Source: Patescibacteria group bacterium
Lineage (GTDB): Bacteria > Patescibacteriota > Patescibacteriia > UM-FILTER-42-10
Length of the DNA: 64,000 nt
Direction: 5' to 3'
Assembly (NCBI GenBank): GCA_041666485.1
Contig: JBAYGW010000003.1
Coordinates: 16,415 to 80,414 of the forward strand
The notes under the pieces are model-generated. The model was not told the DNA's origin, ran no database searches, and saw only the letters and a program-made list of their open reading frames with translations. Within the stretch, counting starts at the first letter, position 1. Each line of letters starts with the position of its first letter. Shown one piece after another: positions 3,342-62,356 of the stretch. Position numbers and translations under genes: made by a program.

Positions 3342-4819
3342 TTCTCCGTCACATTAAATCCCATGTATTTACCCAGCATCAGCCGGGTCTGAGCATCAAT
3401 CGCTGGAATTGATCCGAAAAAGATCATTGTTACCGGAAAGAGTACCCATTGTAACAGCATTTCAACAAATTTAATCTTATGTTTTTGCTCGGGCCTTTTA
3501 GGCAGCAATGTCGTACTGAAAACTGCCATCAAAATCAGGCCGATCATTGCCGCGCTCATCAGCCACTCCAATACATAAGGCGCGGTTTGTGCGGCGATTG
3601 ATGAAGACTCCTGGTATCTGGCAACCGCAAGCGGTAGTCTACCTAAGATAAATATCAAAATCGGAGCTGTGGCCCAGGAATAATGTCCCTCCGCCATGTT
3701 CCACACGTAGTGAAATTTTTGTCGCCATTTAATTTTCTTATTTTTTTTGAAAAACCAAAGCATATACGGAAAATGCTCAATACCGTATGCCCAGCGCCTT
3801 TGCTGTTTATATTGATTTTTTAAACTTTGCCACAGGGTGCTGCCCATAACCGTATCCATGGAAACCGGTATGTACATAGGCGTCACAGTATAATCTCCGT
3901 CATATTCCAGAAAACACTGCAGAAATATTCTGGAATCCTCAGTGACAATATCGTTCTGCCAGAAATCAATATCCACCAGTGCGCGGAAACTCATACTGTG
4001 TGATGAAAATGTAAATAATCTTTCCGGCCGTAACTGTTCGGTCATCAACCAGAATGTCGTGCCATTTGCCACCACCCGCATCAGTGCCGGCGAATCCCAG
4101 ATATTATTATTGAACAGAGGCACGGGCTGGAAACTGGTTTTGGTCGGATTCGGATGGTTAAGATACATGTTCGTCAAATACGCAAAATATTCGCTGTGCA
4201 CGCATGTATCAACATCAAACGAGGATACGATAACGTTTTCGTACGGAATATTTTGGCTGTCAATATATTCCTTTGTTTTTCTACCAGCCCAGGCGATATT
4301 TGAACCTTTCCCGGGCATTTCTCCCGGAATATTCGCCGGGTGTTCCACCACCAGCAGTTTATGAAACTTATCACCGAATTCTCTTTGCATAATTTCCGCA
4401 ATACCGCTCGCTCTTTCCCTATCCCGCTCCTCAATCGCAAACGTAACAATAAATTTGTCCTTCGGATAATTGGAATTTACTAAGCTCTGGAATGTTGATC
4501 TTATTACTTCAATCGGCTCTTTATATGTCGGCAACATAATAAAATGATACATGTCCTGCCAACGGGAATTTTTCCTGCATTCTTCCAACCAATTTACCTT
4601 GATCGCTCTTTTGAAACGGCGATACGAGATGATCATATACAACTGTAAATACAGTATGCGCATCAGCCACAGTAGATCAAAGACAATAATAAAATATATC
4701 ACCCAGATCGGCTGGAAAAATGACAGTGAAATTGCGGCAATAAAAGTAGTCCAGGTCAGCGCACCCGGGATTATTTCCAGAATTCTATATTTACGATAAT
4801 CAGACAGTTTATTAAACAT
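3329..4819 (-). CDS. processive family-2 glycosyltransferase (cellulose/chitin synthase-like, membrane)
   Basis: 496 aa; N- and C-terminal TM helices, FDVDT (DxD), QQRRWAYG (QxxRW) motif. Confidence 0.75.
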   Translation of the reverse strand: MFNKLSDYRKYRILEIIPGALTWTTFIAAISLSFFQPIWVIYFIIVFDLLWLMRILYLQLYMIISYRRFKRAIKVNWLEECRKNSRWQDMYHFIMLPTYKEPIEVIRSTFQSLVNSNYPKDKFIVTFAIEERDRERASGIAEIMQREFGDKFHKLLVVEHPANIPGEMPGKGSNIAWAGRKTKEYIDSQNIPYENVIVSSFDVDTCVHSEYFAYLTNMYLNHPNPTKTSFQPVPLFNNNIWDSPALMRVVANGTTFWLMTEQLRPERLFTFSSHSMSFRALVDIDFWQNDIVTEDSRIFLQCFLEYDGDYTVTPMYIPVSMDTVMGSTLWQSLKNQYKQQRRWAYGIEHFPYMLWFFKKNKKIKWRQKFHYVWNMAEGHYSWATAPILIFILGRLPLAVARYQESSSIAAQTAPYVLEWLMSAAMIGLILMAVFSTTLLPKRPEQKHKIKFVEMLLQWVLFPVTMIFFGSIPAIDAQTRLMLGKYMGFNVTEKIRK

Positions 4820-5678
4820 ATAGTTTTTGGCATTTAGGACAAAAGGTTGTACCGCGGTTACTCACTTTGGTCCTGGACAGTTTAGTGTCACAGCGGAAAC
4901 AATTTTGTCCGCTACGCTTATATACTTTTCTCACGTTCTGGTAATTACCTTTTCTACCGAGCGCATCACGGTAATCTGATATGGATGTACCACGATACTT
5001 TACCGCCTTTTTCAGTATTTTAACAATAGCTGAATGGATGGCTTTGCTTTGTCTTACATTCAGACTGTCCGTTTTCTGTTTAGGATTGATCTTCGCTTCC
5101 CATAAAATCTCATCTGCATATATATTCCCGATTCCTGATACAAAATGCTGATCCAGTAAAATAGATTTAATAAAACCTTTTTTATTTTGGAGCCTTGATT
5201 TAAATACACTGTATGTAAACTCACGACTCAGCGGTTCCGGACCGAGTTTTTTCAGCCGCGGCATATCATTCTCTTCACTTGTTTTAAAAAGCTTAATCTC
5301 GCCAAATCTCCTCACATCCGAAAAAGCCAGCTCTTTATTATCATCCAAATAAAAGCGGGTGCGTATAAACTGATTAAAGGAATCGTAAAATGGACTGTCT
5401 TTTCCCTCTTTATTCTTCCAGTCATGATCACGATAAAGCAAATGACCGGTCATTTTTAAATGAATAAGTAATGTTTGATTACCTGTCAGATCAATCAGAA
5501 TATTTTTTGCCCGCCTTCTAACACCGGTCACTTTCCTGCCGACAATACCTTTCCTGACTTTCAAAACAGAAGGATGAAAGCTCTTCGGCCAATCAGTCCA
5601 AATCTTTTGAACAGTATGTCCTTTCAATTTTACATTTAAATCAGAAACAATTGTTTGTACTTCGGGCAGCTCCGGCAT
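4812..5678 (-). CDS. mutM: formamidopyrimidine-DNA glycosylase
   Basis: 288 aa; MPELPEV N-terminus, H2TH region, C-terminal zinc finger CFRC...CPKCQ. Confidence 0.85.
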   Translation of the reverse strand: MPELPEVQTIVSDLNVKLKGHTVQKIWTDWPKSFHPSVLKVRKGIVGRKVTGVRRRAKNILIDLTGNQTLLIHLKMTGHLLYRDHDWKNKEGKDSPFYDSFNQFIRTRFYLDDNKELAFSDVRRFGEIKLFKTSEENDMPRLKKLGPEPLSREFTYSVFKSRLQNKKGFIKSILLDQHFVSGIGNIYADEILWEAKINPKQKTDSLNVRQSKAIHSAIVKILKKAVKYRGTSISDYRDALGRKGNYQNVRKVYKRSGQNCFRCDTKLSRTKVSNRGTTFCPKCQKLYV

Positions 5679-10307: not shown

Positions 10308-10444
10308 TTGCTCAAGTGTCTTAATGATATAGCAATTTGTTACCGCCTGTCAAGTCGGGTCACAACTCCTCATAAAGCCAATCTTGACAATAACGTACTT
10401 TTGTATTACTTTCTTTGTATGTTGATCTTTGAAACAACGATGTA

Positions 10445-10572
10445 GGTGGGAGGACCGCCGTACCAAAAAGCAAGCAGTAATGCTACCCGCTGGGTGACAT
10501 TGACTGACGGGATTCGTCTCGTCCGTGGGCAGATGTTGCCCTCTGGGATGCTAAAGTGCGCGTCCTCCCACC
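10445..10572 (+). other. GC-rich structured element closed by an 11-bp perfect helix (candidate ncRNA or leader)
   Basis: GGTGGGAGGAC (10446-10456) pairs with GTCCTCCCACC (10563-10573, running into a CCCC run); internal hairpins GGGCAgatgTTGCCC and AGCAgtaaTGCT; not matched to any RNA family I know. Confidence 0.3.
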
Positions 10573-10760
10573 CCACTTTCTTCTACAAATTGCTTTGTGC
10601 GGACGCTTAAGTCCGTTTGTGATAGTCACCCCACAACCCGATCCTACAGGGAGGTACGCCAAATGTACTCGTGGAGTTACGCACGCCACGGGTTCGGTTG
10701 ACCTGCGATCTTCTCCGTCTGAGTAGTCAATGCCCACGACTCAAAATGAGGAGATCTCGC

Positions 10761-11126
10761 ATGTGCGACAAGACCCAATGGAACGCGGGGCACGTCCTCG
10801 TCGTCCAGACCGTGTTCCCGACCGACAGCGAATCCCCCGGCGGTTTCTCGCGCAGCGTCATGTTGTGCACCTGTGGGAGCTGCCTGAGCTCCAACAACCC
10901 GATGACGCCCGCAGGGCCCCTGCACAGCTACCTGAAACGGTGCTTTGAGCAGGACGCTGCTGATGCGGTGGCGGGGGGCCTTGAGCCGCCCGTCAACCTC
11001 CTGAGCATGCCGAAGCTTGACCCGCGCACCGGCGCCGAGAAGCCGACCAAGAAGCAGGCAGCCATGCTGATCAAGCAGATCGGTCCGGACGCCTTCGCTT
11101 CCGACATCGTCGCGGCCTACGCCTAG
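10761..11126 (+). CDS. hypothetical protein (GC-rich island gene 1)
   Basis: ORF about 60%+ GC; GAGGAG SD 6 nt upstream of ATG 10761; followed by strong terminator; no known domain. Confidence 0.45.
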   Translation: MCDKTQWNAGHVLVVQTVFPTDSESPGGFSRSVMLCTCGSCLSSNNPMTPAGPLHSYLKRCFEQDAADAVAGGLEPPVNLLSMPKLDPRTGAEKPTKKQAAMLIKQIGPDAFASDIVAAYA

Positions 11127-11159
11127 CGTAGGAGAAGAAGTACATCGTTGAAGGACATC

Positions 11160-11192
11160 GGGCGAATCCACTGGATTCGCCCATTTTTTTAT
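11160..11192 (+). terminator. rho-independent terminator
   Basis: GGGCGAATCC-act-GGATTCGCCC 10-bp perfect stem followed by ATTTTTTTATT. Confidence 0.7.
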
Positions 11193-11200
11193 TATGAATA

Positions 11201-11229
11201 TTGACAGAAGAAGTGGAATACAATACCAT
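11201..11229 (+). promoter_or_regulatory. sigma70-like promoter (TTGACA-17-TACCAT)
   Basis: TTGACA at 11201, TACCAT at 11224 with 17-nt spacer, upstream of SD GGAGGAGG. Confidence 0.4.
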
Positions 11230-11276
11230 TGTTAACGCCCGCTGATTGTAAGACATCCTTCATGGAGGAGGTGGAC

Positions 11277-11573
11277 ATGTCCCAAAGTCGGCTGGTGATG
11301 TTCTTAATGCTCTTTCTCGGACTGACTCTCTCTCCCCTGTTTCTTGTCGTTGCGGCGGTTATGTTCCTTGCTCCCTCGGAGCCGAAGCTCATCCCCCGGG
11401 ATGATGAAGGGAGACGTTGCTGTCCCGTCTGCCACTCCAGACACTATCTCATCTTCCCGACTCGGCAGAAGAGCTACTTCGGCCATTCCTGGATTTCAGC
11501 ATTTTGCAGAAACCAAATGGAATACCGCTACCAGGACTGCACAATGAGCTGGAAAGAATCCGGGGACGGCTAA
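11277..11573 (+). CDS. hypothetical small membrane protein with CC..C.C..H cluster (GC-rich island gene 2)
   Basis: 99 aa from ATG after GGAGGAGG SD; N-terminal TM helix; CCPVCHSRH. Confidence 0.45.
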   Translation: MSQSRLVMFLMLFLGLTLSPLFLVVAAVMFLAPSEPKLIPRDDEGRRCCPVCHSRHYLIFPTRQKSYFGHSWISAFCRNQMEYRYQDCTMSWKESGDG

Positions 11574-11623
11574 ACCGCGTTGATGTTCTATCAGCGCTTT
11601 TTTTATATATTTATTTGACGTTA

Positions 11624-22907: not shown

Positions 22908-24497
22908 CTAGTGCCAGAACATCCGGCGATCGGTAAAGAGCATCGCGATGCCCAGTTTGTCCGCGGACCTGATTGAATCCTGGTCGCGAATTGAACCGCC
23001 CTGCTGGACGATCGTCTTGACGCCGAACGTGTCCGCCAGGCGCACGCAGTCGTCAAACGGGAAGAAGCTGTCGGACACCAGCACAGCATGGTGCAGATCC
23101 ATATTCTGCGCCTCCATGTTGTTCATGGCCTGCTCCAGAGCAAGCCGTGCCGACTTGATCCGGCTGGTCTGGCCGTTGCCGATGCCGATCGTCTGCCCGT
23201 TCCAGACCACGATGACCGAGTTGGACTTGACGTGCTTTGACACATTGCAGCCGAAACTGATATCCGACCAGTAGCGGTCCTTGACACCGAGCTTGGTGAC
23301 GCACCGGAACGACCTGCAGTCAAACAGCTCGGTGTCCATCAGCTGGACCACCATGCCGCCGGTCACCGGCTTGAAGTTCAGCGTGCCGAACGGCATGCTG
23401 CAGGAAAGCTCCCCACCCAGTTTGAACAGCGGGGTCTCTGCCCTGGCGCGCTTCTTGGTGATGTGTTCCATCGCCTCCGGCGAAAAATCCAGCGCGACGA
23501 TCGCGTCCACCTTCTGCACGCAGATGGTTTCAGCGACTTCCTCCGTCACCTGGAAGTTGAGTACCACCACCCCGCCGAAAGCCGATTCCGGATCGCACGC
23601 CAGTGCGTTCTGGAAAGCCTTCAGCGGACTGAAGCTGTCCATCGCCACTCCGCACGGCGTACCATGCTTGATGATCGCGACTGCGAATTCCGGGGACAGG
23701 TCGCGGACCGTCTCAATGCCGGCATTGATATCCAGCACAGTGGTGGCCGAGAGCGGCTTGCCCCAGATCTGCTTGGCGTTTGCCGCGGTGTAGCAGTTCA
23801 GACCCGGCAGTTCGTAGAACGCACCCGGCTGATGCGGATTCTCACCGTAGCGCAGATCACACTTCTTCTGCAGACGCTGAACCATCCGATCCGGGAAGCT
23901 GGGGAACTCAAGGCGTTCAGCCAGCCAGTCGGAGATCGTGGCGTCATACCACGCAGTGTGAAGAAACGCCTTGTAAGCCAGTTGCAGACGTTCCAGCGCG
24001 TTGAACCCGACATCTTCCGAAAGACACCGAATCACAAAGCCGTACTGCTCTGGTGAAGTGACCACCAGCACATGGCTGTGATTCTTCGCGGCCGCGCGGA
24101 TCAGTGCCACGCCGCCGATATCAATCTGCTCAATCGCGTCCCGAAATGCCACGGTCCGATCAGCCACCGTCTCTTCAAACGGATACAGGTTGACCACGAC
24201 CATGTCAAACGGGTAGATGCTGTGATCAAACAGCTCCTGCATGTGCGCGTCGCTGTCCTGATCCGCCAGGATCCCGCCGTGGATCTTCGGATGCAGAGTC
24301 TTCACCCTGCCACCCAGAATTTCCGGGAAACCGGTCACCTCCTCTACCGTTCGCACGGGAATTCCGGCTTCCACCAGGTGTCTGGACGTTCCGCCGGAAG
24401 ATACAATCTCCCAGCCATGTTCAAACAGCACGGTGGCAAGCTCAACAATGCCGCGCTTGTCGGACACGCTGATCAGAGCGCGCTGATTTGCTCGCAT
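22908..24497 (-). CDS. purH: bifunctional AICAR transformylase / IMP cyclohydrolase (high-GC gene)
   Basis: ALISVSDKRGIVELA MGS-like domain, GGRVKTLHPKIHGGILA, AICARFT domain; about 60% GC; AAAGGAG SD 7 nt before ATG at 24497. Confidence 0.85.
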   Translation of the reverse strand: MRANQRALISVSDKRGIVELATVLFEHGWEIVSSGGTSRHLVEAGIPVRTVEEVTGFPEILGGRVKTLHPKIHGGILADQDSDAHMQELFDHSIYPFDMVVVNLYPFEETVADRTVAFRDAIEQIDIGGVALIRAAAKNHSHVLVVTSPEQYGFVIRCLSEDVGFNALERLQLAYKAFLHTAWYDATISDWLAERLEFPSFPDRMVQRLQKKCDLRYGENPHQPGAFYELPGLNCYTAANAKQIWGKPLSATTVLDINAGIETVRDLSPEFAVAIIKHGTPCGVAMDSFSPLKAFQNALACDPESAFGGVVVLNFQVTEEVAETICVQKVDAIVALDFSPEAMEHITKKRARAETPLFKLGGELSCSMPFGTLNFKPVTGGMVVQLMDTELFDCRSFRCVTKLGVKDRYWSDISFGCNVSKHVKSNSVIVVWNGQTIGIGNGQTSRIKSARLALEQAMNNMEAQNMDLHHAVLVSDSFFPFDDCVRLADTFGVKTIVQQGGSIRDQDSIRSADKLGIAMLFTDRRMFWH

Positions 24498-24641
24498 TTC
24501 TGCTCCTTTCGTGGCAAACCGTGAAGCTTTCACCGCAAACAACCGTTTGGGAAACGGTTTTTTAACTTATCACTCCGACTGACGCAAGTCAAATCAAAAA
24601 CGGGTGACTTTCACCCGCATTTAATTATGAATGAATATGTC

Positions 24642-55653: not shown

Positions 55654-55810
55654 ACCGTCTTATTGTACCAAATATCAATGTTTCTGGCGACTTGTCATTA
55701 CAGTCACGTAGCAACCCTGACTTGCCAGAGTAAATGAAATATGGTAAAAACAAAACTGTGCCCATCTTCAGGGCGCAAATGACCAAAACCCGTTTTTGGG
55801 AGGTATTGGT

Positions 55811-56923
55811 ATGGACCAACGATTTGTCGATCTGGCGAGAGTCATGGTCGGCCATTCCACAAGGGTCTCAAAGGACGATATCGTCATCGTCAAGAGCACG
55901 GAGGTAGTGCCGCCCGACATGATCTTCGCGGTGATCCAGACCGTGCGCGAAGCGGGGGGCTCCGTGATCCCCTGGCGCTACGATCCGCGCATTGACTTCG
56001 AGGCATTCAGGGGTGGCACCGCTCACCAGCTGCGTGCCTGGGGCGCCGGCCAGTTTACCCAACTGGCTGCCGCCAACTGCTTCATTGAGTTCCGGCCGTT
56101 CAGTAACCAGCTCGACGGCAACGACGTGCCGGCAGCGGACATGCAGCGCCACGGCGAGGTGTTCGTTCCGCTGACGGTTGAACAGCGCGTGGAACGCACC
56201 CGCTGGGTGCTGACCCGCTGGCCGACGCCGGCCAACGCCCAGTTGGCCGGGATGTCCACGACGCAGTTCGAAGAGTTCTTCTTCAAGGCATGCCTCGCCG
56301 ACTACGGCGCCATGGCCAAGGCCGTGAAGCCGCTCGTCGCCCTGATGGAGCGGACCGACCAGGTCCAGATCCAAGGGCCGGGCGACACCGATCTCACTTT
56401 CAGCATCAAGGGAATTCCGATCATCGCCTGTACCGGATCGCACAACATCCCCGACGGCGAAGTGTTCACGGCGCCGGTTCGCGATTCCATGAACGGCGTG
56501 ATCGCCTACAACACCCCCACGGTCAACTCCCGCGGCCAGCGGTTCACCAATCTCCGCTTCGTGGTCAAGGCGGGCAAGATCGTGGAGGCGACCTGCGAGA
56601 CGGGTGACCAGACGGCGCTGGACGCCTTCCTGGACACCGACGAGGGTGCCCGCTACTTCGGCGAATTCGCCCTCGGCATCAACAACTTCGTCACGGGTGT
56701 GATCGGCGAAACGCTGTTCGACGAGAAGGTCGGTGGAAGCCTCCACTTGACGCCCGGCCGGTGCTATGAGCAAGCGCCGAACGGGAACCAGTCGGCCAAC
56801 CACTGGGACATCGTCTGCGATCAGCGCGGGGCTTCCGGTGGTGGGGAGATCTACTTCGACGGCAAGCTGGTCCGCAGCAAAGGGCTTTTCATCCCGAAGA
56901 GCCTCCACGCGCTCAATCCCTGA
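55811..56923 (+). CDS. M29-family aminopeptidase (AmpS/PepS-like), high-GC gene
   Basis: 371 aa; GEFALGIN and HWDIV motifs; about 65% GC; GGGAGG SD before ATG 55811. Confidence 0.75.
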   Translation: MDQRFVDLARVMVGHSTRVSKDDIVIVKSTEVVPPDMIFAVIQTVREAGGSVIPWRYDPRIDFEAFRGGTAHQLRAWGAGQFTQLAAANCFIEFRPFSNQLDGNDVPAADMQRHGEVFVPLTVEQRVERTRWVLTRWPTPANAQLAGMSTTQFEEFFFKACLADYGAMAKAVKPLVALMERTDQVQIQGPGDTDLTFSIKGIPIIACTGSHNIPDGEVFTAPVRDSMNGVIAYNTPTVNSRGQRFTNLRFVVKAGKIVEATCETGDQTALDAFLDTDEGARYFGEFALGINNFVTGVIGETLFDEKVGGSLHLTPGRCYEQAPNGNQSANHWDIVCDQRGASGGGEIYFDGKLVRSKGLFIPKSLHALNP

Positions 56924-58396: not shown

Positions 58397-58972
58397 TTAA
58401 TAATTTTCTTTAAATATTTCAAAGTGTGCCTGGGGGTGCAGGCAAGCCGGGCAGACATTCGGCGCCTTTGTTCCCTCGTGCAGATAACCGCAATTCCGAC
58501 ACTTCCAAATAATCTTTTCACCGCTGACAAATACTTTACCTTCTTCTAAATTTTGATACAGCTTTCTGTACCTTTTTTCGTGTGCTCCTTCAACTTTTGA
58601 AATATTCCGAAAAGCATTGGCAATTTCTTTGAATCCTTCTTCCTCTGCGACATCAGCAAAGCCAGGATATAGTTCTGACCACTCTTCATGTTCGCCTTCC
58701 GCGGCTGCCTTCAAATTTTCCAAGGTCGTGCCAATTTTTCCGGCAGGATAAGTGGCAGTTATTTCAACCTTATTGCCTTCCAAAAATTTGAAAAATATTT
58801 TGGCATGTTCCCGTTCATTCAAAGCGGTTTCTTCAAAAATACCAAACATTTGTTCCAAGCCTTCTTTTTTCGCCTGCTTGGAAAAATAATCATAACGCAT
58901 TCGGGCCTGTGACTCACCGGCAAATGCTTTGAGCAAATTTTTTTCTGTTTGTGAACCAGCTAAATTTCCCAT
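58397..58972 (-). CDS. rubrerythrin
   Basis: di-iron ferritin-like E..H motifs plus C-terminal rubredoxin-like CRNCG...CPAC. Confidence 0.85.
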   Translation of the reverse strand: MGNLAGSQTEKNLLKAFAGESQARMRYDYFSKQAKKEGLEQMFGIFEETALNEREHAKIFFKFLEGNKVEITATYPAGKIGTTLENLKAAAEGEHEEWSELYPGFADVAEEEGFKEIANAFRNISKVEGAHEKRYRKLYQNLEEGKVFVSGEKIIWKCRNCGYLHEGTKAPNVCPACLHPQAHFEIFKENY

Positions 58973-59093
58973 ATCAATTGATGTTAATGATTATTTGTAT
59001 TGGTCTACATTATAGCAGATTTACACGGATTATCAATTAGAGCCAAAATGAAAAAACCAAATTATTCCGGCTCAAAATTGAAGATAAACAATT

Positions 59094-59861
59094 TTACATC
59101 ACAGTCAAATCTACCCCTTTTGATTCATAATATTCTAAAACATAATCGGGTATCTGTATTTTATGATGCCTAAAGCATTGGACCATTTTTGTAATATATC
59201 CCTCTTTATCATCCTCCCATGTATCCCAATGCAACGATTCACGAGCGATCGCATTTAGTTCCTTATCCATAGCTCCGTACTTCAACTGTAAATCCGTTAG
59301 CTCCTTCCACAAAATAAGATGATACAAACGGATACCACTCTGATCAAACCATGATTGACTGTCAAAAACATCCTGATATTTTTCATGAAACCGGTCTATC
59401 TGATATTCCCCATATATAAACACAGCTACCCCGGTTACAATCGCTCCAACTTCTGCCAGTTTTTTTGTGCTTTCACGCTTGGATTTTGCAGCAGCCATTG
59501 AATCATCCACTAATAAAACGCGTGTTCCGGGTTTGATAAAATTCATGCCACCAACGATAACCGGTCGTCCTGCACGTTTTGATTCACCGCGCACAATAAC
59601 CATTGGTTTGCCAGTTGCCATTGAAATCGCCGTCGCAATGGTAACACCGGATAACTCAATACCGGCAATAATATCTACCTGACTAAAATCAATCAGTCGT
59701 TTGAACTCTTCCGCAAGCAATTTCAATATCGTCGGCTCACCAACTACGCCTCTGGTAAAATCCACAGGAATCAAGCCATAACTGGTCATTACTGGTACAA
59801 GTGTAAACAAATTCGGAAACGTTCCCAGTCGTTTGATTAATTCTTGGCTTTGTATGTTCAT
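59094..59861 (-). CDS. phosphoribosyltransferase-fold protein (OPRTase-like, degenerate PRPP motif)
   Basis: VLLVDDSMAAAKS resembles type I PRTase loop; C-terminal extension. Confidence 0.45.
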   Translation of the reverse strand: MNIQSQELIKRLGTFPNLFTLVPVMTSYGLIPVDFTRGVVGEPTILKLLAEEFKRLIDFSQVDIIAGIELSGVTIATAISMATGKPMVIVRGESKRAGRPVIVGGMNFIKPGTRVLLVDDSMAAAKSKRESTKKLAEVGAIVTGVAVFIYGEYQIDRFHEKYQDVFDSQSWFDQSGIRLYHLILWKELTDLQLKYGAMDKELNAIARESLHWDTWEDDKEGYITKMVQCFRHHKIQIPDYVLEYYESKGVDLTVM

Positions 59862-59989
59862 AAAGTAATTGTAACGCGCATATATTCTAGGTCAAGGTGC
59901 CTGTATAACTACTGCCCGTTCGAATCCCAATAATTACAAATGTCTTAATTCATTATTTATCCTGAGCACAACAGGAGCGCACAAGGCAT

Positions 59990-60138
59990 AGATTTGACAA
60001 GTCTAGCTAGTCCTCGCCGAGACAGAAAAAAGTGGGGCCCCCGACCCGCTTTTGGCGGGTTGGGGAAAGGGGCACAGACCCGCAACCTAAAACAACCAAG
60101 CTTGCTTGGTTGTGACAGGTGAAGGGTCTGATGACCCG
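59990..60138. other. GC-rich hairpin-dense spacer 3' of tRNA-Gln
   Basis: GGGGCCCC palindrome, CCCGCttttgGCGGG and CAACCAAGCttgCTTGGTTG hairpins; CCTCGCCGAGAC unit related to insertions in the tRNA duplicate. Confidence 0.4.
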
Positions 60139-60212
60139 TGGCTGGGGAGGAGGGATTCGAACCCCCGGTGACGGGACCAGAACCCGTTGCCTTACCGCTT
60201 GGCTACTCCCCA
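60139..60212 (-). tRNA. tRNA-Gln (anticodon CUG), CCA encoded
   Basis: manual fold: acceptor UGGGGAG/CUCCCCA, D-arm GCC-AAGCGGUAA-GGC, anticodon stem ACGGG/CCCGU with loop UUCUGGU, T-arm GGGGG-UUCGAAU-CCCUC, 3' GCCA. Confidence 0.75.
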
Positions 60213-60221
60213 ATGTTTAGA

Positions 60222-60488
60222 TTAATTTTTATTTTTGATTTCTTCTATGTCTTTCAGTTTTTCATCAAGTAATTTTCTACCTTGACCGGATTTTAAAAAC
60301 TTTTCTCTTTTCATTGCCTCAGATCTACTATTAAAATCTTCCTTATAAATCAATACCCACGGTGATCGTCCCTTAGTATATCTACACTTGCCGCTATTGT
60401 GTTCTTCTAATCTTTTCTCAACATTATCAGTGCTACCAACGTACCTATTCTGGTAATTTATACTTTTTATTACGTAAATTGAATACAT
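60222..60488 (-). CDS. GIY-YIG nuclease family protein (small, UPF0213/YhbQ-like)
   Basis: 89 aa from MYSIYVIKS...RYVGSTDNVEKRLEEHNSGK..YTKGRSPWVLIY.E.F; longer ORF-track frame reads through the upstream tRNA-like duplicate. Confidence 0.75.
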   Translation of the reverse strand: MYSIYVIKSINYQNRYVGSTDNVEKRLEEHNSGKCRYTKGRSPWVLIYKEDFNSRSEAMKREKFLKSGQGRKLLDEKLKDIEEIKNKN

Positions 60489-60499
60489 TGTATTTTTAT

Positions 60500-60650
60500 G
60501 ATTCCTCGCCGGAGGCGAGTGCGCTCGCCTCGCTTTCGCGAGAGCGAAGCGGGCCTCAGGCGCAGAACCCCCGGTGACGGGACCAGAACCCGTTGCCTTA
60601 TCCGCCTCGGCTCGACGCCTCGTCGAGACGGGCCGCTTGGCTACTCCCCA
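60500..60650 (-). pseudogene. partial duplicate of tRNA-Gln 5' portion interrupted by two GC-rich palindromic insertions
   Basis: 60555-60650 reproduces tRNA positions 1-~56 with a 33-nt insertion in the D-loop and a ~60-nt hairpin insertion (GAGGCGAGtgcgCTCGCCTC) after GGGGGTTC; no 3' acceptor strand. Confidence 0.5.
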
Positions 60651-60706
60651 ATGTTTTATTTCAAAAAAATAATTCGCCATATATCGCATGGCGATAACAT
60701 TCTTAT

Positions 60707-62356
60707 CTAACCTTCTACCACTTTCCCGCCGAAGGTGTCAAGTGCATCCTTCAGCGCACTACTGTCTTCCTCTTTTTTATTGTGTTCCGGTATCTTTTTA
60801 TCTCGCAACGCATTATCAATAATACAGGTGAAGGTCAGGGGCGTTTCATATACTTCATCCAGTACATTTTCAATTATCTGTTTGTTCTTTGCTTCCCAGA
60901 CCCGGTCCATATAAAATTTAAACCCGAAAGCAATTGTAATAACCTTGCCGTTAATCTCCAATACTTCCCCGACACTTAAGGTAAGTGATAAAGAATGATT
61001 ATGTGCTTTTAGCTTTTTTAAAAAAGTTTTCCATTTTTTTTCAATCTCTGACAGCTTAACAACCGGCGTCTCTTTTACCAATTCATCTGTTTCATCAACC
61101 GCCTTCTTTTCAGCTAGAACTGGCCTAATTACCTCTTTTACTATCTTATGTACTTGAGCAATTGGTCTTACTTCGGGAATATTTCTTCTGTTTGGTGGTT
61201 GAAATTTAGGAGTAAAAGACGGTTGATTCTTTGTAACCGGCTGTGTTATTTCATTCCCGCCCTCAATAATTTCCAAAATTGCAATTTCCAGCGGGAGTTG
61301 GATTATATCCTTTTGCGCTTTGATCATCGGTTCAATTTTAAGAAAAATATTGATCCACCGGATCAGTTCCTGTGAATTGAATTGATTTGAAATTTTAATC
61401 ATTTCTTTCTGCAGTTCATCATCCATTTCATACACAACAAACTTCTCCAATGAACTTGATATATTAAGCAGCATGATTCTTCTTAACACTTCAATCACAT
61501 TTTTAACAAAATTCCTGACATTTCCACCCTCTTCTACCAACCTGTTGACCAGCTCAATAGATGCGGCGGTATTTTCCATCGCAATCAGGCTCAAAAACTG
61601 AATCACTAGTGTATCATCAGAATGCGGAACGATCAGATCAATGTGATCCATTGTAACTTTTTTCTCTCCGAGTGAAAGCACCTGACCCAACATGCTCTCG
61701 GCGTCCCGTACACTACCGTCAGAAGCCATAGCAATTGCCTTCAAGACCGGCTCATCAACCTGCACTTTTTCCTGACTAATAATAGTGTTCAACCGGAGCA
61801 CCAGATCTTTTACTCCCACTTTCTGAAAATCAAAACGCTGACAGCGGGATATAATAGTCTGCGGCACCTTATGTACCTCGGTTGTCGCAAGGATAAACAC
61901 AACATTTTCCGGCGGTTCTTCCAGTGTTTTCAGCAAAGCATTGAACGCGGATATTGAAAGCATGTGGACTTCATCTATTATGAATACTTTGTAGGTGCTG
62001 GATACCGTTGCCACACGCGAATTGTCAATTATATTTTGTCTTACATTATCCACTCCCGTATGAGAAGCAGCATCAATCTCAACCAAATCCAATAATCTTC
62101 CCTTCATAATATCTTTGCAGGAGCTGCATTCATTACAGGGTTCTGCAGAATCTTTTTTTCTTTTCTTACAGTTAAGAGATTTTGCAAAAAGACGGGCAAT
62201 GGTTGTCTTGCCGACACCCCGCGGACCGGTAAACAAATATGCATGGGCGATTCTACCGCTTTCCAATTCATTTATCAGCGTAATTCTGATATGATTTTGA
62301 TCAACCAAATCCTTAAAAGACTGCGGCCGATATTTACGATATAGTGTCTGTGACAT
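60707..62356 (-). CDS. dnaX: DNA polymerase III subunit gamma/tau
   Basis: YRPQSFKDLVDQ, GPRGVGKTT Walker A, zinc module CNECSSC, SRC motif. Confidence 0.85.
   Translation of the reverse strand: MSQTLYRKYRPQSFKDLVDQNHIRITLINELESGRIAHAYLFTGPRGVGKTTIARLFAKSLNCKKRKKDSAEPCNECSSCKDIMKGRLLDLVEIDAASHTGVDNVRQNIIDNSRVATVSSTYKVFIIDEVHMLSISAFNALLKTLEEPPENVVFILATTEVHKVPQTIISRCQRFDFQKVGVKDLVLRLNTIISQEKVQVDEPVLKAIAMASDGSVRDAESMLGQVLSLGEKKVTMDHIDLIVPHSDDTLVIQFLSLIAMENTAASIELVNRLVEEGGNVRNFVKNVIEVLRRIMLLNISSSLEKFVVYEMDDELQKEMIKISNQFNSQELIRWINIFLKIEPMIKAQKDIIQLPLEIAILEIIEGGNEITQPVTKNQPSFTPKFQPPNRRNIPEVRPIAQVHKIVKEVIRPVLAEKKAVDETDELVKETPVVKLSEIEKKWKTFLKKLKAHNHSLSLTLSVGEVLEINGKVITIAFGFKFYMDRVWEAKNKQIIENVLDEVYETPLTFTCIIDNALRDKKIPEHNKKEEDSSALKDALDTFGGKVVEG

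Follow-up and report, generated by a model that had tools for sequence, protein, structure and literature searches.

A GIY-YIG nuclease gene between an intact and a displaced tRNA-Gln copy in a Patescibacteria genome: a probable mobile cassette of tRNA loops

The Seg proteins of T4-like phages are about 200 aa or longer and combine I-TevI-like catalytic domains with DNA-binding domains. Free-standing GIY-YIG genes of these phages spread by break-induced gene conversion, in which the flanks are co-converted (PMC2330249), and SegB also promotes the segmental amplification of tRNA loci (PMC13096335). We analyzed a tRNA-Gln locus in a 64-kb stretch of DNA (the window) from a Patescibacteria group bacterium (contig JBAYGW010000003.1). 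As with the Seg genes (for example SegB, in a tRNA gene cluster), a GIY-YIG gene is located between or beside tRNA genes and no intron is involved. As in the intronless homing of Seg genes, a conserved site is polymorphic for the presence of the cassette. However, the protein of the cassette has 88 aa and is of the SLX1/YhbQ type. Moreover, the cassette sits inside a tRNA gene, has a double hairpin (DH) and retains a duplicate of its target. Unlike the Seg genes, it resides on chromosomes of CPR and other bacteria, and viral contigs almost never carry it. A phage vector was rejected, since viral contigs gave only 4 weak matches (≤49% identity).

Substitution of a target gene is known from fungal mitochondria. 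In Allomyces atp6, a mobile endonuclease ORF brings a replacement piece of its target gene. Likewise, the mobile endonuclease ORFs of Glomus ('mORFs') insert into an essential gene and substitute for the displaced part, and the old part becomes a pseudogene (PMC3787672). Insertion into an essential gene together with a substitute for the displaced part is also the pattern at our locus. Mitochondria also contain double-hairpin elements and GC clusters, which are small, GC-rich and mobile in an AT-rich genome. However, the mitochondrial ORFs encode LAGLIDADG or classical GIY-YIG enzymes and lie in protein-coding organelle genes. The mitochondrial hairpin elements are dispersed, do not target tRNA loops and lack the fixed order of hairpin, ORF and tRNA.

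Among prokaryotic systems, REPIN-RAYT and IS200/IS605 resemble the cassette in that a nuclease gene is flanked by short GC-rich palindrome doublets, insertion is precise without target duplication, and the hairpins are probably recognized as structures. In contrast to these systems, which use HUH Y1 transposases, no such gene was found at the cassette locus. REPINs occur in tens to hundreds of dispersed copies, whereas the cassette hairpins are confined to the tRNA locus. The protein itself is most similar in sequence and fold to SLX1 and UPF0213 (YhbQ), with conserved catalytic motifs, but it lacks the RING domain and the Slx4 partner of SLX1. Unlike YhbQ, its subfamily has its own FLKSGxGR motif and a tight linkage to tRNA genes, which to our knowledge has not been reported for YhbQ. 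Finally, group I introns interrupt tRNA genes of Patescibacteria at position 35/36 (PMC13011429). The host phylum and the interruption of a tRNA gene are the same here, but the cassette has no ribozyme, its site is in the T-loop, and function is saved by a duplicate gene rather than by splicing. Accordingly, Rfam gave no intron match at the locus, and the ORF is followed by no 3' exon other than a complete tRNA.

Structure of the tRNA-Gln locus

On the minus strand, dnaX is followed by the 5' portion of a tRNA-Gln (nt 1-54 and GAATC), the 88-aa GIY-YIG gene, the intact tRNA-Gln(CUG) and a GC-rich trailer. The features are as follows.

60707-62356 (minus): dnaX (DNA polymerase III gamma/tau), the upstream host gene (ORF list, Pfam domains of the L001 orthologue, synteny in relatives)
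60674-60694 (minus): terminator-like hairpin directly past the dnaX stop codon
60651-60656 (minus): AAACAT, 6 nt of tRNA upstream flank copied along with the 5' fragment, equal to 60213-60218 (exact repeat)
60633-60650 (minus): displaced 5' tRNA-Gln fragment, nt 1-18, acceptor 5' strand and D-arm to the conserved GG
60601-60632 (minus): D-loop insertion, 32 nt, GC-rich and palindromic, CCCGTCTCG..CCGAGGCGGA
60565-60600 (minus): displaced 5' tRNA-Gln fragment, nt 19-54, ending at the C of the T-loop GTTC, canonical C56 (exact repeat)
60505-60564 (minus): DH junction element in the T-loop between canonical C56 and G57 (compared with 64 distinct DHs, and alignment)
60523-60552 (minus): nested palindromic insert, 30 nt, in the 3' arm of DH hairpin 1 (alignment)
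60500-60504 (minus): GAATC, T-loop continuation past the DH (tRNA nt 55-59)
60489-60499 (minus): AT-rich leader from the tRNA-derived sequence to the ATG
60222-60488 (minus): GIY-YIG nuclease gene, 88 aa, SLX1/YhbQ (UPF0213) type
60213-60221 (minus): spacer, 9 nt, from the stop codon to the tRNA
60139-60212 (minus): intact tRNA-Gln(CUG), CCA encoded (ARAGORN and Rfam)
60027-60138 (minus): GC-rich structured trailer, ending in a terminator-like hairpin and T-run
60012-60023 (minus): GTCTCGGCGAGG, possibly a hairpin-arm remnant, or a chance match
59912-59928 (minus): GGGATTCGAACGGGCAG, the truncated start of a second type of T-loop-associated module (complete in L001, L003 and other loci)

A first-pass annotation of the window, made from the sequence without database searches, had proposed a complete tRNA-Gln(CUG) at 60139-60212 on the minus strand. 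ARAGORN called tRNA-Gln(ctg) there, and Rfam RF00005 gave 60.8 bits against a threshold of 29, so the tRNA passed detection. The partial copy upstream, which the annotation had placed at tRNA positions 1 to about 56, is real and no chance match. It carries exact repeats of 24 nt (60633-60656 = 60195-60218) and 36 nt (60565-60600 = 60159-60194), and 60 of 60 nucleotides (tRNA nt 1-54 and 6 nt of upstream flank) are identical to the intact gene. Since the GAATC after the insertion at 60505-60564 continues the T-loop, the displaced copy extends further than proposed, to about nt 59. The 3' acceptor half is indeed missing, as had been claimed: the 3' strands of both T-stem and acceptor are absent and the tRNA sequence ends at GAATC. 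In the region 60500-60650, Rfam gave no tRNA match even at E ≤ 10, and ARAGORN made no call. Rfam searches of the window at gathering thresholds, and of 58500-62000, L001 and L003 at permissive ones, returned tRNAs only, with no intron, ribozyme, tmRNA or riboswitch.

The ORF between the two tRNA copies matches Pfam PF01541 (E = 4e-17), and its stop codon lies 9 nt ahead of the tRNA. It was expected to encode a YhbQ/UPF0213-like GIY-YIG protein of 89 aa; the family was correct and the length is 88 aa. The subfamily has the invariant residues Y17, G19, R27, E30 and H31, conserved catalytic motifs and a specific invariant C-terminal motif, FLKSGxGR. In the AF2 model (pLDDT 93), the order of elements is beta-beta-alpha-beta-alpha-alpha. 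The best relatives in the sequence search were 1zg2 (3e-7), 1ywl (7e-7) and SLX1 (1e-3). Foldseek superimposed the model on the SLX1 nuclease domain with an rmsd of 1.5-3 Å at 30-38% identity, whereas I-TevI gave E = 0.13, and the NCBIfam model of group I intron endonucleases reached 20 bits against a cut-off of 56. Judging by sequence and modelled fold, the predicted nuclease is a member of the UPF0213/SLX1 branch and not of the I-TevI one. The 88 aa correspond to the nuclease domain alone, with neither the RING/zinc finger nor the Slx4 partner of an SLX1 orthologue and without the extra DNA-binding domain of I-TevI/Seg-type homing endonucleases. Its dN/dS of about 0.1-0.18 indicates that the predicted nuclease ORF is maintained by purifying selection.

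The trailer past the intact tRNA is 105/107 identical between the window and the syntenic relative L001. It was rejected as a part of the element: only these two genomes have it, and it is a lineage-specific flank. The motif CCTCG[C/T]CGAGAC, reported as a related unit 3' of the intact tRNA, does occur twice (60012 and 60618), but this is weak evidence, with 0.12 occurrences expected and 1 of 100 shuffles reaching two. The second module type (GGATTCGAAC...) was rejected as a stable RNA, its folding energy being no better than that of shuffles (z = 0.2).

The double hairpin

The insertion at 60505-60564 had been described as a perfect hairpin of about 60 nt. The insertion is there, but alignment resolved it into a conserved 30-nt DH (TGCGCC-TGA-GGC[..]GCA and CTCGCC-TCC-GGCGAG) and a nested palindromic insert of 30 nt. 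The nested insert (60523-60552, edges ambiguous by 1-3 nt) is private to the window genome. The D-loop insertion, counted earlier as 33 nt, has 32 nt; it is absent in L001, and a related insert occupies the identical D-loop site in L028. Thus, the suggestion of GC-rich palindromic elements in a tRNA pseudogene held, as these are discrete units placed in tRNA loops. Across related loci, the DH is almost always exactly 30 nt long and is inserted at GGTTC|GAATCC, or in D-loops and anticodon loops, without target duplication. No further copy of the hairpin units was found within the 64-kb window. The T-loop palindrome is a conserved 30-nt DH tied to the cassette, and not a genome-wide repeat.

Compensatory changes preserve both hairpins: 110 cells show changes on both sides, whereas shuffles give 32.5 (0/500 shuffles reached 110). 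These counts come from a set chosen by a hairpin filter, and the percentage paired is inflated by this choice. As a single long hairpin the DH was rejected, because covariation was at or below that of shuffles. It was also rejected as a 5'-UTR element of the ORF, because Asn-type loci place the DH after the ORF or flanking tRNA fragments. Counts of G·T and A·C mismatches in the stems (RNA versus DNA) are uninformative, since the DH filter itself admitted G·T pairs. A solo DH in an otherwise complete tRNA (RNA-level removal) was also rejected. Deleting the DH in silico and running ARAGORN gave six matches; those in L030 (three) and L074 (one), where the loci were inspected fully, were array members or displaced near-complete copies, and those in L033, L035 and L070 lay directly upstream of the ORF, followed by the intact tRNA.

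Insertion, horizontal exchange and distribution

In several relatives (L106, L118, L120, L098, L109, L112), tRNA-Gln begins 3-22 nt past the dnaX stop codon, with no fragment or nuclease gene between them. This comparison shows dnaX directly followed by tRNA-Gln as the ancestral state, so that the fragment and the nuclease gene are an insertion. The cassette entered the tRNA-Gln gene and pushed its 5' part upstream, and this displaced part now bears the DH. The tRNA-targeted scar proposed in the first-pass annotation was thus borne out. L001, the syntenic relative, likewise has a fragment and not a functional tRNA as its second copy.

We compared synonymous divergence between the window and L001. 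For the ORF, pS was 0.27 (dS 0.34), and for the flanking host genes dnaX and rubrerythrin it was 0.68 and 0.66, that is, the divergence of the ORF is 2.5-fold lower. The cassette is therefore much younger than the split of the two genomes and has moved horizontally into the same site. Across loci, displaced fragments differ from the intact tRNAs by 20 compensatory stem-pair differences at no fewer than 10 loci; in the window, the fragment shows no difference. Together, the empty sites, the low pS of the ORF and the foreign fragments with compensatory changes are the polymorphism and horizontal spread of a homing element. These results show that the cassette was exchanged horizontally.

The comparison covered about 80 loci with 99 related copies of the ORF. 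An intact tRNA on the same strand lies within 60-70 nt of 69 of the 99 copies and within 400 nt for 20 more, and essentially every locus has one. In most loci, a partial copy of the same tRNA lies on the other side of the ORF, and the tRNA-Gln copies end at nt 54. The same break point, 30-nt DH and gene order are repeated at many tRNAs in several phyla, and close relatives of the ORF are found at different tRNAs (Gln, Tyr, Asn, Lys). The ORF family is patchy and multi-copy, with some tandem arrays; about 1,000 protein clusters at 50% identity match it at E ≤ 1e-10, and the hosts are CPR bacteria, Ignavibacteria, Bacteroidota and Omnitrophota. Fuller loci have a DH at both junctions, the same one in Asn-type and several Gln loci, and a displaced 3' fragment on the right side as well. 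Since many tRNA genes from several phyla show this arrangement, it looks like a family of mobile elements within tRNA genes. Searches of open-access full texts turned up no account of small GIY-YIG genes that are linked to tRNAs and accompanied by hairpins, and the family is apparently undescribed so far.

Origin of the cassette

The locus probably represents a copy of a selfish cassette that is partly decayed; the cassette would target tRNA loops and spread in a homing-like way, driven by recombination. Such a cassette would consist of a minimal SLX1/YhbQ-type GIY-YIG gene, a 30-nt DH in the tRNA loop and an adjoining intact copy of the same tRNA, with which the splitting of the resident gene costs the host nothing. 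As to the role of the DH and the mechanism of cleavage, we infer the following. The nuclease would break DNA at the tRNA loop or at a hairpin structure, and repair would copy the cassette from the filled allele, with the tRNA sequences on both sides serving as homology arms. In the window, the right junction was probably lost through recombination of the 3' end of the intact tRNA with a displaced 3' fragment. The additional palindromes in the D-loop and inside the DH would have come later and may poison recombinants that delete the nuclease gene.

Some observations argue against homing. The 88-aa protein has no DNA-binding domain, which leaves sequence specificity unexplained. Since the intact tRNA in a filled locus retains the presumed target, a simple homing nuclease would re-cut its own genome. 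In addition, the DH copies at the two junctions are usually identical within a locus, so that integration of a circle by DH recombination, or a long staggered cut, fits at least as well as classical homing.

This last point leads to hairpin-directed transposition, which we consider unlikely. Here the GIY-YIG protein would be a structure-specific transposase or resolvase acting on the DH, as at RAYT/REPIN or TnpA/IS200/IS605 ends, and a DH-bounded unit or a circle with one DH would be excised and enter TTC|GAA-like sites in the single-stranded loops of tRNA genes, with no homologous repair. The DH insertions are base-exact, 30 nt long and without target duplication, the DH has an overall dyad symmetry (GCC-NNA-GGC, then GCC-TNN-GGC), identical DHs flank the cassette in many loci, including the Asn-type and several Gln loci, and the protein is of the structure-specific SLX1 type. 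Extra hairpins of the same family are also nested in other loops and within the DH itself. However, we know of no GIY-YIG transposase. Counted from the DH, the tRNA-derived sequence gives way to the ORF leader after 4 to 14 nt, depending on the locus, which does not resemble a defined element end. The hairpins are not dispersed, with none elsewhere in the 64 kb, and the mosaic fragments, with their compensatory differences, are consistent with gene conversion.

It is rather improbable that a local tandem duplication made the 5' fragment, with the GIY-YIG gene being a normal gene of the host that is transcribed together with the tRNA, and with independent GC-rich palindromes (MITE/REP-like or repair products) colonizing the dead copy. 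The complete identity of the window fragment, 6-nt flank included, and the purifying selection on the ORF would suit this, and tRNA pseudo-copies with different hairpin inserts exist without a nearby nuclease gene, as in L109. Taken by itself, the window locus could have arisen by a local duplication, as its fragment does not differ from the intact tRNA. But break point, DH length and gene order are shared by many tRNAs in several phyla, and empty sites exist. A local duplication also does not fit the low synonymous divergence of the ORF relative to its host flanks, the foreign fragments with compensatory changes, or the patchy, multi-copy and sometimes tandem family.

An RNA-level explanation is very improbable. 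The interrupted copies would be expressed and the hairpins removed from the transcript as intervening sequences, with the GIY-YIG protein acting on RNA, for instance as a processing endonuclease, and the fragments being functional precursors or regulators. Every insertion lies in a loop and on the tRNA strand, and the 5' fragment is still identical to the tRNA although the ORF has a dS of 0.34. Slx1-like GIY-YIG domains of bacteria are also fused to tRNA methyltransferase-like genes (PMC1564403). However, no tRNA can come from the window copy, which lacks the 3' strands of the T-stem and acceptor, and essentially all loci already have an intact tRNA. The strand symmetry of the DH consensus points to DNA, and neither a ligase or ribozyme signature nor an Rfam match of this kind was found. 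We give almost no credence to an integrase-type island scar or a repeat-caused assembly artefact: tRNA genes are classical integration sites and two repeats of 100% identity are separated by 400 nt, but there is no integrase (the sole ORF is the GIY-YIG gene), the 5' end and not the 3' end is duplicated, the insert is only about 440 nt, and dozens of MAGs and metagenomes independently assemble the same structure.

Returning to the homing-like cassette, it is possible, although we hold this only tentatively, that it represents a new class of prokaryotic mobile elements. A minimal SLX1-like GIY-YIG nuclease would read the structure of DNA and not its sequence (its own DH, or else the loops or cloverleaf of a tRNA gene) and move a hairpin-bounded cassette into tRNA loops. 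The cassette would be hard to lose, as an essential tRNA is left intact only in the cassette, the resident copy being irreversibly broken by the hairpin, which amounts to addiction by replacement of an essential gene. If this is so, tRNA genes of CPR, Ignavibacteria, Bacteroidota and Omnitrophota harbour a large family of selfish cassettes. Besides splicing (introns) and gene-end duplication (integrative islands), there would be a third route into an essential gene, in which the cassette brings or keeps a whole working copy. The widespread orphan YhbQ/SLX1-like proteins of 80-90 aa would gain a biological role, and the principle of targeting by a very small structure-specific nuclease paired with a defined hairpin of 30 nt could be useful in practice. 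Such cassettes would also explain annotation artefacts, namely N-terminally extended 'proteins' that arise when gene callers read through hairpins and tRNA fragments, as well as contig breaks at tRNA loci and tRNA pseudogenes with GC-rich inserts.

Layout of the tRNA-Gln locus and its relatives

The window carries a derived copy of a GIY-YIG/double-hairpin cassette resident in a tRNA loop, from what appears to be a large family not described before. In these, a nuclease ORF, a conserved 30-nt double hairpin (DH) and an intact tRNA copy lie inside a split tRNA gene. The locus is arranged as follows, entirely on the minus strand.

60139-60212 (-): intact tRNA-Gln(CUG)
60222-60488 (-): GIY-YIG ORF of 88 aa, from the family-conserved start
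60505-60564 (-): 60-nt block of ~70% GC, 3' of the tRNA repeats
60565-60600: 36-nt exact direct repeat of 60159-60194
60601-60632 (-): GC-rich 32-nt D-loop insert separating both tRNA repeats
60633-60656: 24-nt exact direct repeat of 60195-60218

The tRNA-Gln(CUG) is the sole tRNA detected by ARAGORN in the entire window, and it reaches 60.8 bits with the Rfam tRNA model (threshold 29). It begins 9 nt after the ORF, which matches Pfam GIY-YIG at E = 4e-17. The two repeats, found 5' of the ORF by a repeat search, jointly reproduce tRNA nt 1-54 and 6 nt of its 5' flank with 60/60 identity. After the 60-nt block come GAATC (the T-loop continuation), an AT-rich leader of 11 nt and the start codon ATG. 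In the window, the 3' strands of the T-stem and acceptor are absent after the displaced fragment, and Rfam gives no tRNA match to the upstream copy even at E <= 10. A sigma-70-like promoter was not found in the short spacer of the window. The first-pass annotation had described a tRNA-Gln(CUG), a GIY-YIG gene and a partial tRNA duplicate with GC-rich palindromes. ARAGORN, Rfam, Pfam and the exact repeats agree with it save for small numbers: the protein has 88 aa, not 89, and the D-loop insert 32 nt, not 33. ORF callers may read across the hairpins and the tRNA fragment, which gives a 155-aa ORF at 60222-60689 (-).

The closest relative, L001 (88% protein identity, 392-kb contig), has the same neighbourhood of dnaX, cassette and rubrerythrin. 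It carries two 5' tRNA-Gln fragments, a shorter GC block, the ORF and an intact tRNA-Gln(CUG). Farther downstream lie a 3' tRNA fragment (GAATCCCTCCTCCCCAACCA) and a GC-rich trailer like that of the window. This order indicates that an ancestral tRNA-Gln was split in the T-loop. In L001 the trailer stands 3' of the displaced 3' fragment; the window has the left junction only, and its intact tRNA abuts the trailer directly. Most simply, the right junction would have been lost through deletion or conversion, with the intact tRNA's 3' end and the displaced 3' fragment as the partners.

The trailer (window 60027-60138 (-), L001 3526-3640) is GC-rich, with a fold z of -4.6 and a terminator-like hairpin at its end. 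It is 105/107 identical between the two loci, whereas the host-gene flanks are saturated (pS 0.66-0.68), and both differences fall inside a hairpin loop. Among the loci compared, only these two have it. It may be either a constrained small RNA/3' trailer or a co-converted flank. In the window, a 255-aa phosphoribosyltransferase-domain gene (59094-59861 (-)) separates the tRNA locus from rubrerythrin; L001 lacks it and has two unrelated small ORFs instead. By this comparison, the region adjoining the tRNA is variable.

Kerfeldbacteria loci (78% protein identity) show the matching layout at tRNA-Gln(UUG) in another gene neighbourhood. In their cassette at L003, the 3' fragment at 2165-2190 (GAATCCCTGTTCCGGAGCCA) mismatches the acceptor stem of the local tRNA-Gln(UUG) and seems to come from another tRNA allele. 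At Asn-type loci both junctions are present: a 5' fragment (1-55), DH, GAATCC.., spacer and intact tRNA-Asn are followed by the ORF, ..GGTTC, DH and the 3' fragment. At any one locus, both DHs usually have the same sequence. The Gln loci L024, L061, L064, L083 and L032 have the right junction as in the Asn type. The general form can be written as tRNA(1-p), DH, a few nt, the ORF and intact tRNA in either order, a few nt, DH, tRNA(p+1-end).

A scan of one genome per species gave 337 confirmed matches, and 80 loci were retained for counts. An intact same-strand tRNA lies 0-60 nt downstream of 54/99 ORF copies and at most 70 nt upstream of 15/99, with 20 more within 400 nt; the remaining copies are mostly at contig ends or within tandem arrays. 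The tRNAs are chiefly Gln, but also Tyr, Asn, Ser, Lys, Val, Phe, Cys and Ala. The hosts are mostly candidate-phyla-radiation (CPR) bacteria, plus Ignavibacteria, Bacteroidota, Omnitrophota and Margulisiibacteriota. About 60 loci have a partial copy of the same tRNA on the other side of the ORF (the Gln copy stops at nt 54), and many have a 3' fragment (55-end) past the intact tRNA. Tandem arrays of up to three units, either [tRNA fragment - DH - GIY-YIG ORF] or [spacer - DH - 3' fragment], occur at L037, L068, L076, L077, L089, L011, L044 and L061. Many loci terminate less than 2 kb from the cassette, which suggests that assemblies break at the repeat.

The double hairpin and the nuclease

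Using an alignment of the 130 nt upstream of every ORF and a census, we found that the stretch 3' of the tRNA break measures exactly 30 nt in almost every case. It forms two 6-bp hairpins with 3-nt loops, with the consensus TGCGCC-ARA-GGCGCA + YYCGCC-TYY-GGCGRR. The insertion is base-exact, without target duplication, and 4-14 nt of host tRNA continuation, a leader and the ATG follow.

Insertion sites of the DH (a slash marks the point of insertion)
GGTTC/GAATCC: T-loop (canonical C56/G57)
TCTC/GAAAACC: Ser-CGA anticodon loop
CTTT/GGAG: Gln-UUG anticodon loop
GGTTT/AACTGG: Ser D-loop

Across 64 distinct DHs, the GCC-NNA-GGC and GCC-TNN-GGC cores hardly vary, and in each stem the three outer pairs change in a compensated way, with 98.7% of cells paired (35-39% in slid controls). 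Cells changed on both sides numbered 110 against 32.5 after shuffling, and 0/500 shuffles reached that value. This set was gathered through a hairpin filter; a filter-free positional alignment gives the same hairpins. A single long hairpin is unsupported. The window DH reads TGCGCC TGA GGC[30-nt insert]GCA CTCGCC TCC GGCGAG. Thus, the ~60-nt "perfect hairpin" annotated earlier is indeed an insertion, but it is a DH with a nested 30-nt palindrome. In comparison with L001, L003, L022 and L033, this palindrome (60523-60552) and the D-loop insert of 32 nt are seen in the window genome alone; L028 has a D-loop insert with matching ends at the same position. The rest of the 64 kb contains no further copy of either insert and no canonical DH, so the hairpins are a part of the cassette and not a genome-wide repeat.

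Another T-loop-associated GC-rich sequence, the type-2 module, sits downstream of the intact tRNA. It starts with GGATTYGAAS, the T-loop complement, has a GC-rich body of ~100 nt with a GGGnnG..CnnCCC-AGGAC core in several loci, and ends at the displaced 3' tRNA fragment. The module's initial bases are complementary to the RAATCC of the fragment and covary with it in L078. It is seen both with and without the GIY-YIG gene. The module is negative in Rfam, and its fold is no more stable than shuffles.

Occurrences of the type-2 module
L001: 3405-3525
L003: 2075-2190
L065: 549-685
L078: 2463-2579
L045: 3693-3813 and 3872-3992
L096, L137, L110 and L098: also present
Window: 59912-59928 (-), first 17 nt only

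Homologues of the 88-aa protein are labelled "GIY-YIG nuclease family protein" in Patescibacteria/CPR metagenome-assembled genomes, and most have 79-85 aa. The best sequence matches among solved structures are the UPF0213 proteins BH0048 and EF2693, followed by SLX1. An AlphaFold model from 32 homologues reached a pLDDT of 93. Its nearest structures in Foldseek are UPF0213, the SLX1 nuclease domain (rmsd 1.5-3 A, 30-38% identity) and the plant resolvase HIGLE; I-TevI gave only E = 0.13. The YhbQ/UPF0213-like identity proposed earlier therefore holds, since UPF0213 is among the nearest in both comparisons. The family has invariant catalytic motifs and an invariant FLKSGxGR motif at the C terminus, and the protein has no DNA-binding domain. 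Judged by sequence and predicted fold, the nuclease is a minimal GIY-YIG enzyme of the structure-specific type, not an I-TevI-like homing enzyme. Its dN/dS is 0.1-0.18 in 5/6 pairs, those with estimable dS, which indicates that the gene is kept functional. An exhaustive HMMER search gave 1,032 clusters (50% identity) at E <= 1e-10. Many carry 20-60-aa N-terminal extensions, probably because ORF callers read through upstream sequence, as with the 155-aa ORF of the window. In the database protein P0086, the extension holds "..GSNPT..", a translated T-arm.

Insertion and horizontal movement

Judged from metagenome dnaX homologues, many CPR conserve the order dnaX, then tRNA-Gln. At L106, L118, L120, L098, L109 and L112 the site is empty: the tRNA lies 3-22 nt past the end of the dnaX match, with neither tRNA fragment nor nuclease. 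The dnaX site of L090 is occupied by a distant family member (41% identity), and L096, L099 and L166 retain remnants of tRNA fragments. For the nuclease ORF, comparison of the window with L001 gives pN 0.036 and pS 0.27 (dS 0.34; ~55 synonymous sites, standard error ~0.06). The host genes are near saturation, dnaX at pS 0.68 (dS 1.8) and rubrerythrin at 0.66 (dS 1.6). Thus, the ORF is much younger than the host split. These distances indicate that it was passed on horizontally, landing in the same site. The empty sites and the younger ORF support the earlier reading of a tRNA-targeted insertion.

At no fewer than 10 loci, stem pairs altered on both sides but still paired distinguish the displaced fragment from the adjacent intact tRNA (20 pairs; in L021, for example, GC>UA and AU>UA in the anticodon stem). 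Two different functional alleles were thus brought together. Another 34 changed pairs are broken, as expected from fragment decay and misalignment around inserts. ORFs 70-77% identical sit at different genes (Gln, Tyr, Asn or Lys), and in 19/59 cases the nearest-neighbour ORF is at a tRNA for a different amino acid. The tandem arrays of L011, L037, L068, L076 and L089 are further evidence of mobility. The 5' fragment matches the intact tRNA at 54/54 positions in the window and 53/54 in L001 despite the ORF dS of 0.34, which would imply ongoing gene conversion or repeated homing.

Mode of movement and related systems

The architecture is established, as are the insertion, the horizontal movement and the selection acting on the nuclease; for the mode of movement we favour a homing-like route. 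A break in the tRNA loop of an empty allele would be repaired on the filled allele, with tRNA sequence as a homology arm at each side: the displaced 5' fragment on the left, and the intact tRNA or 3' fragment on the right. The point of invasion at the right end would decide between a window-type and a full two-junction product. Such repair would account for the mosaic fragments and the variable boundary after the DH, and unequal exchange between direct repeats for the tandem arrays. Transcription may start 5' of the displaced 5' fragment, which retains the tRNA's 6-nt 5' flank, and RNase P would then free the intact tRNA from the shared transcript.

The main rival is hairpin-directed transposition. 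Simple homing does not explain the lack of a DNA-binding domain, the intact target persisting in the filled locus or the identical DHs at both junctions. All three fit a structure-directed reaction, as does the SLX1-type fold. Its substrate could be the DH, folded into hairpins or a cruciform, or alternatively the cloverleaf of the tRNA gene strand. Circle integration through DH recombination would also fit. Were the cassette lost by recombination between DHs, the remnant would be a dead tRNA carrying one solo DH, and recombinants of the 5' fragment with the intact tRNA would get the D-loop insert unless exchange fell in the first 18-24 nt. It is an attractive, if hypothetical, corollary that the hairpins and extra inserts stabilise the cassette, since the products of its loss would be dead or insert-bearing. 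We give a new mechanism of mobility a substantial, though less than even, chance.

We rate the family as allied to free-standing homing-type elements. Closest in logic are the T4 Seg-type genes and fungal mitochondrial mobile ORFs. T4-like phages carry free-standing GIY-YIG homing genes, of which SegB sits in a tRNA cluster (PMC2330249) and also amplifies tRNA segments (PMC13096335). The fungal ORFs bring along a substitute for the end of the target gene that is displaced (PMC3787672), and mobile double-hairpin elements rich in GC co-occur with them (PMC3787672 and other papers). Group I introns in the tRNA genes of Patescibacteria differ in kind, being ribozymes at position 35/36 (PMC13011429). 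CPR rRNA genes have GIY-YIG ORFs in non-intron insertions (PMC11270868), which may be related to the cassette. In hairpin-nuclease pairing, REPIN-RAYT and IS200/IS605 are closest, but the cassette has no HUH enzyme and its hairpins are undispersed. UPF0213/YhbQ and SLX1 are closest in protein. We take COG4123 to be a tRNA m6A37 methyltransferase family. The link to tRNA recurs elsewhere: a 2006 survey describes bacterial Slx1-like domains fused or adjacent to a TrmH-like methyltransferase and COG4123 (PMC1564403). We found no published description of a tRNA-loop GIY-YIG/DH cassette in full-text literature drawn mostly from outside subscription journals.

The window also has sharp GC-rich islands (56-66% GC in a ~39% GC genome) at 22908-24542 (-), 55796-56923 (+) and ~10400-11600. 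They comprise a gene for PurH (AICARFT/IMPCHase), one for an M29 aminopeptidase and a small-ORF block without Pfam matches. By composition they resemble DNA recently acquired from high-GC organisms, or else chimeric assembly.

At ~4795-4950, L109 has a near-complete second tRNA-Gln copy downstream of the intact one, with no nuclease gene nearby. This copy carries a 43-nt palindromic D-loop insert and an 18-nt T-loop hairpin, both of other sequence families. Thus, loop hairpins in tRNA pseudo-copies may be a wider CPR phenomenon.
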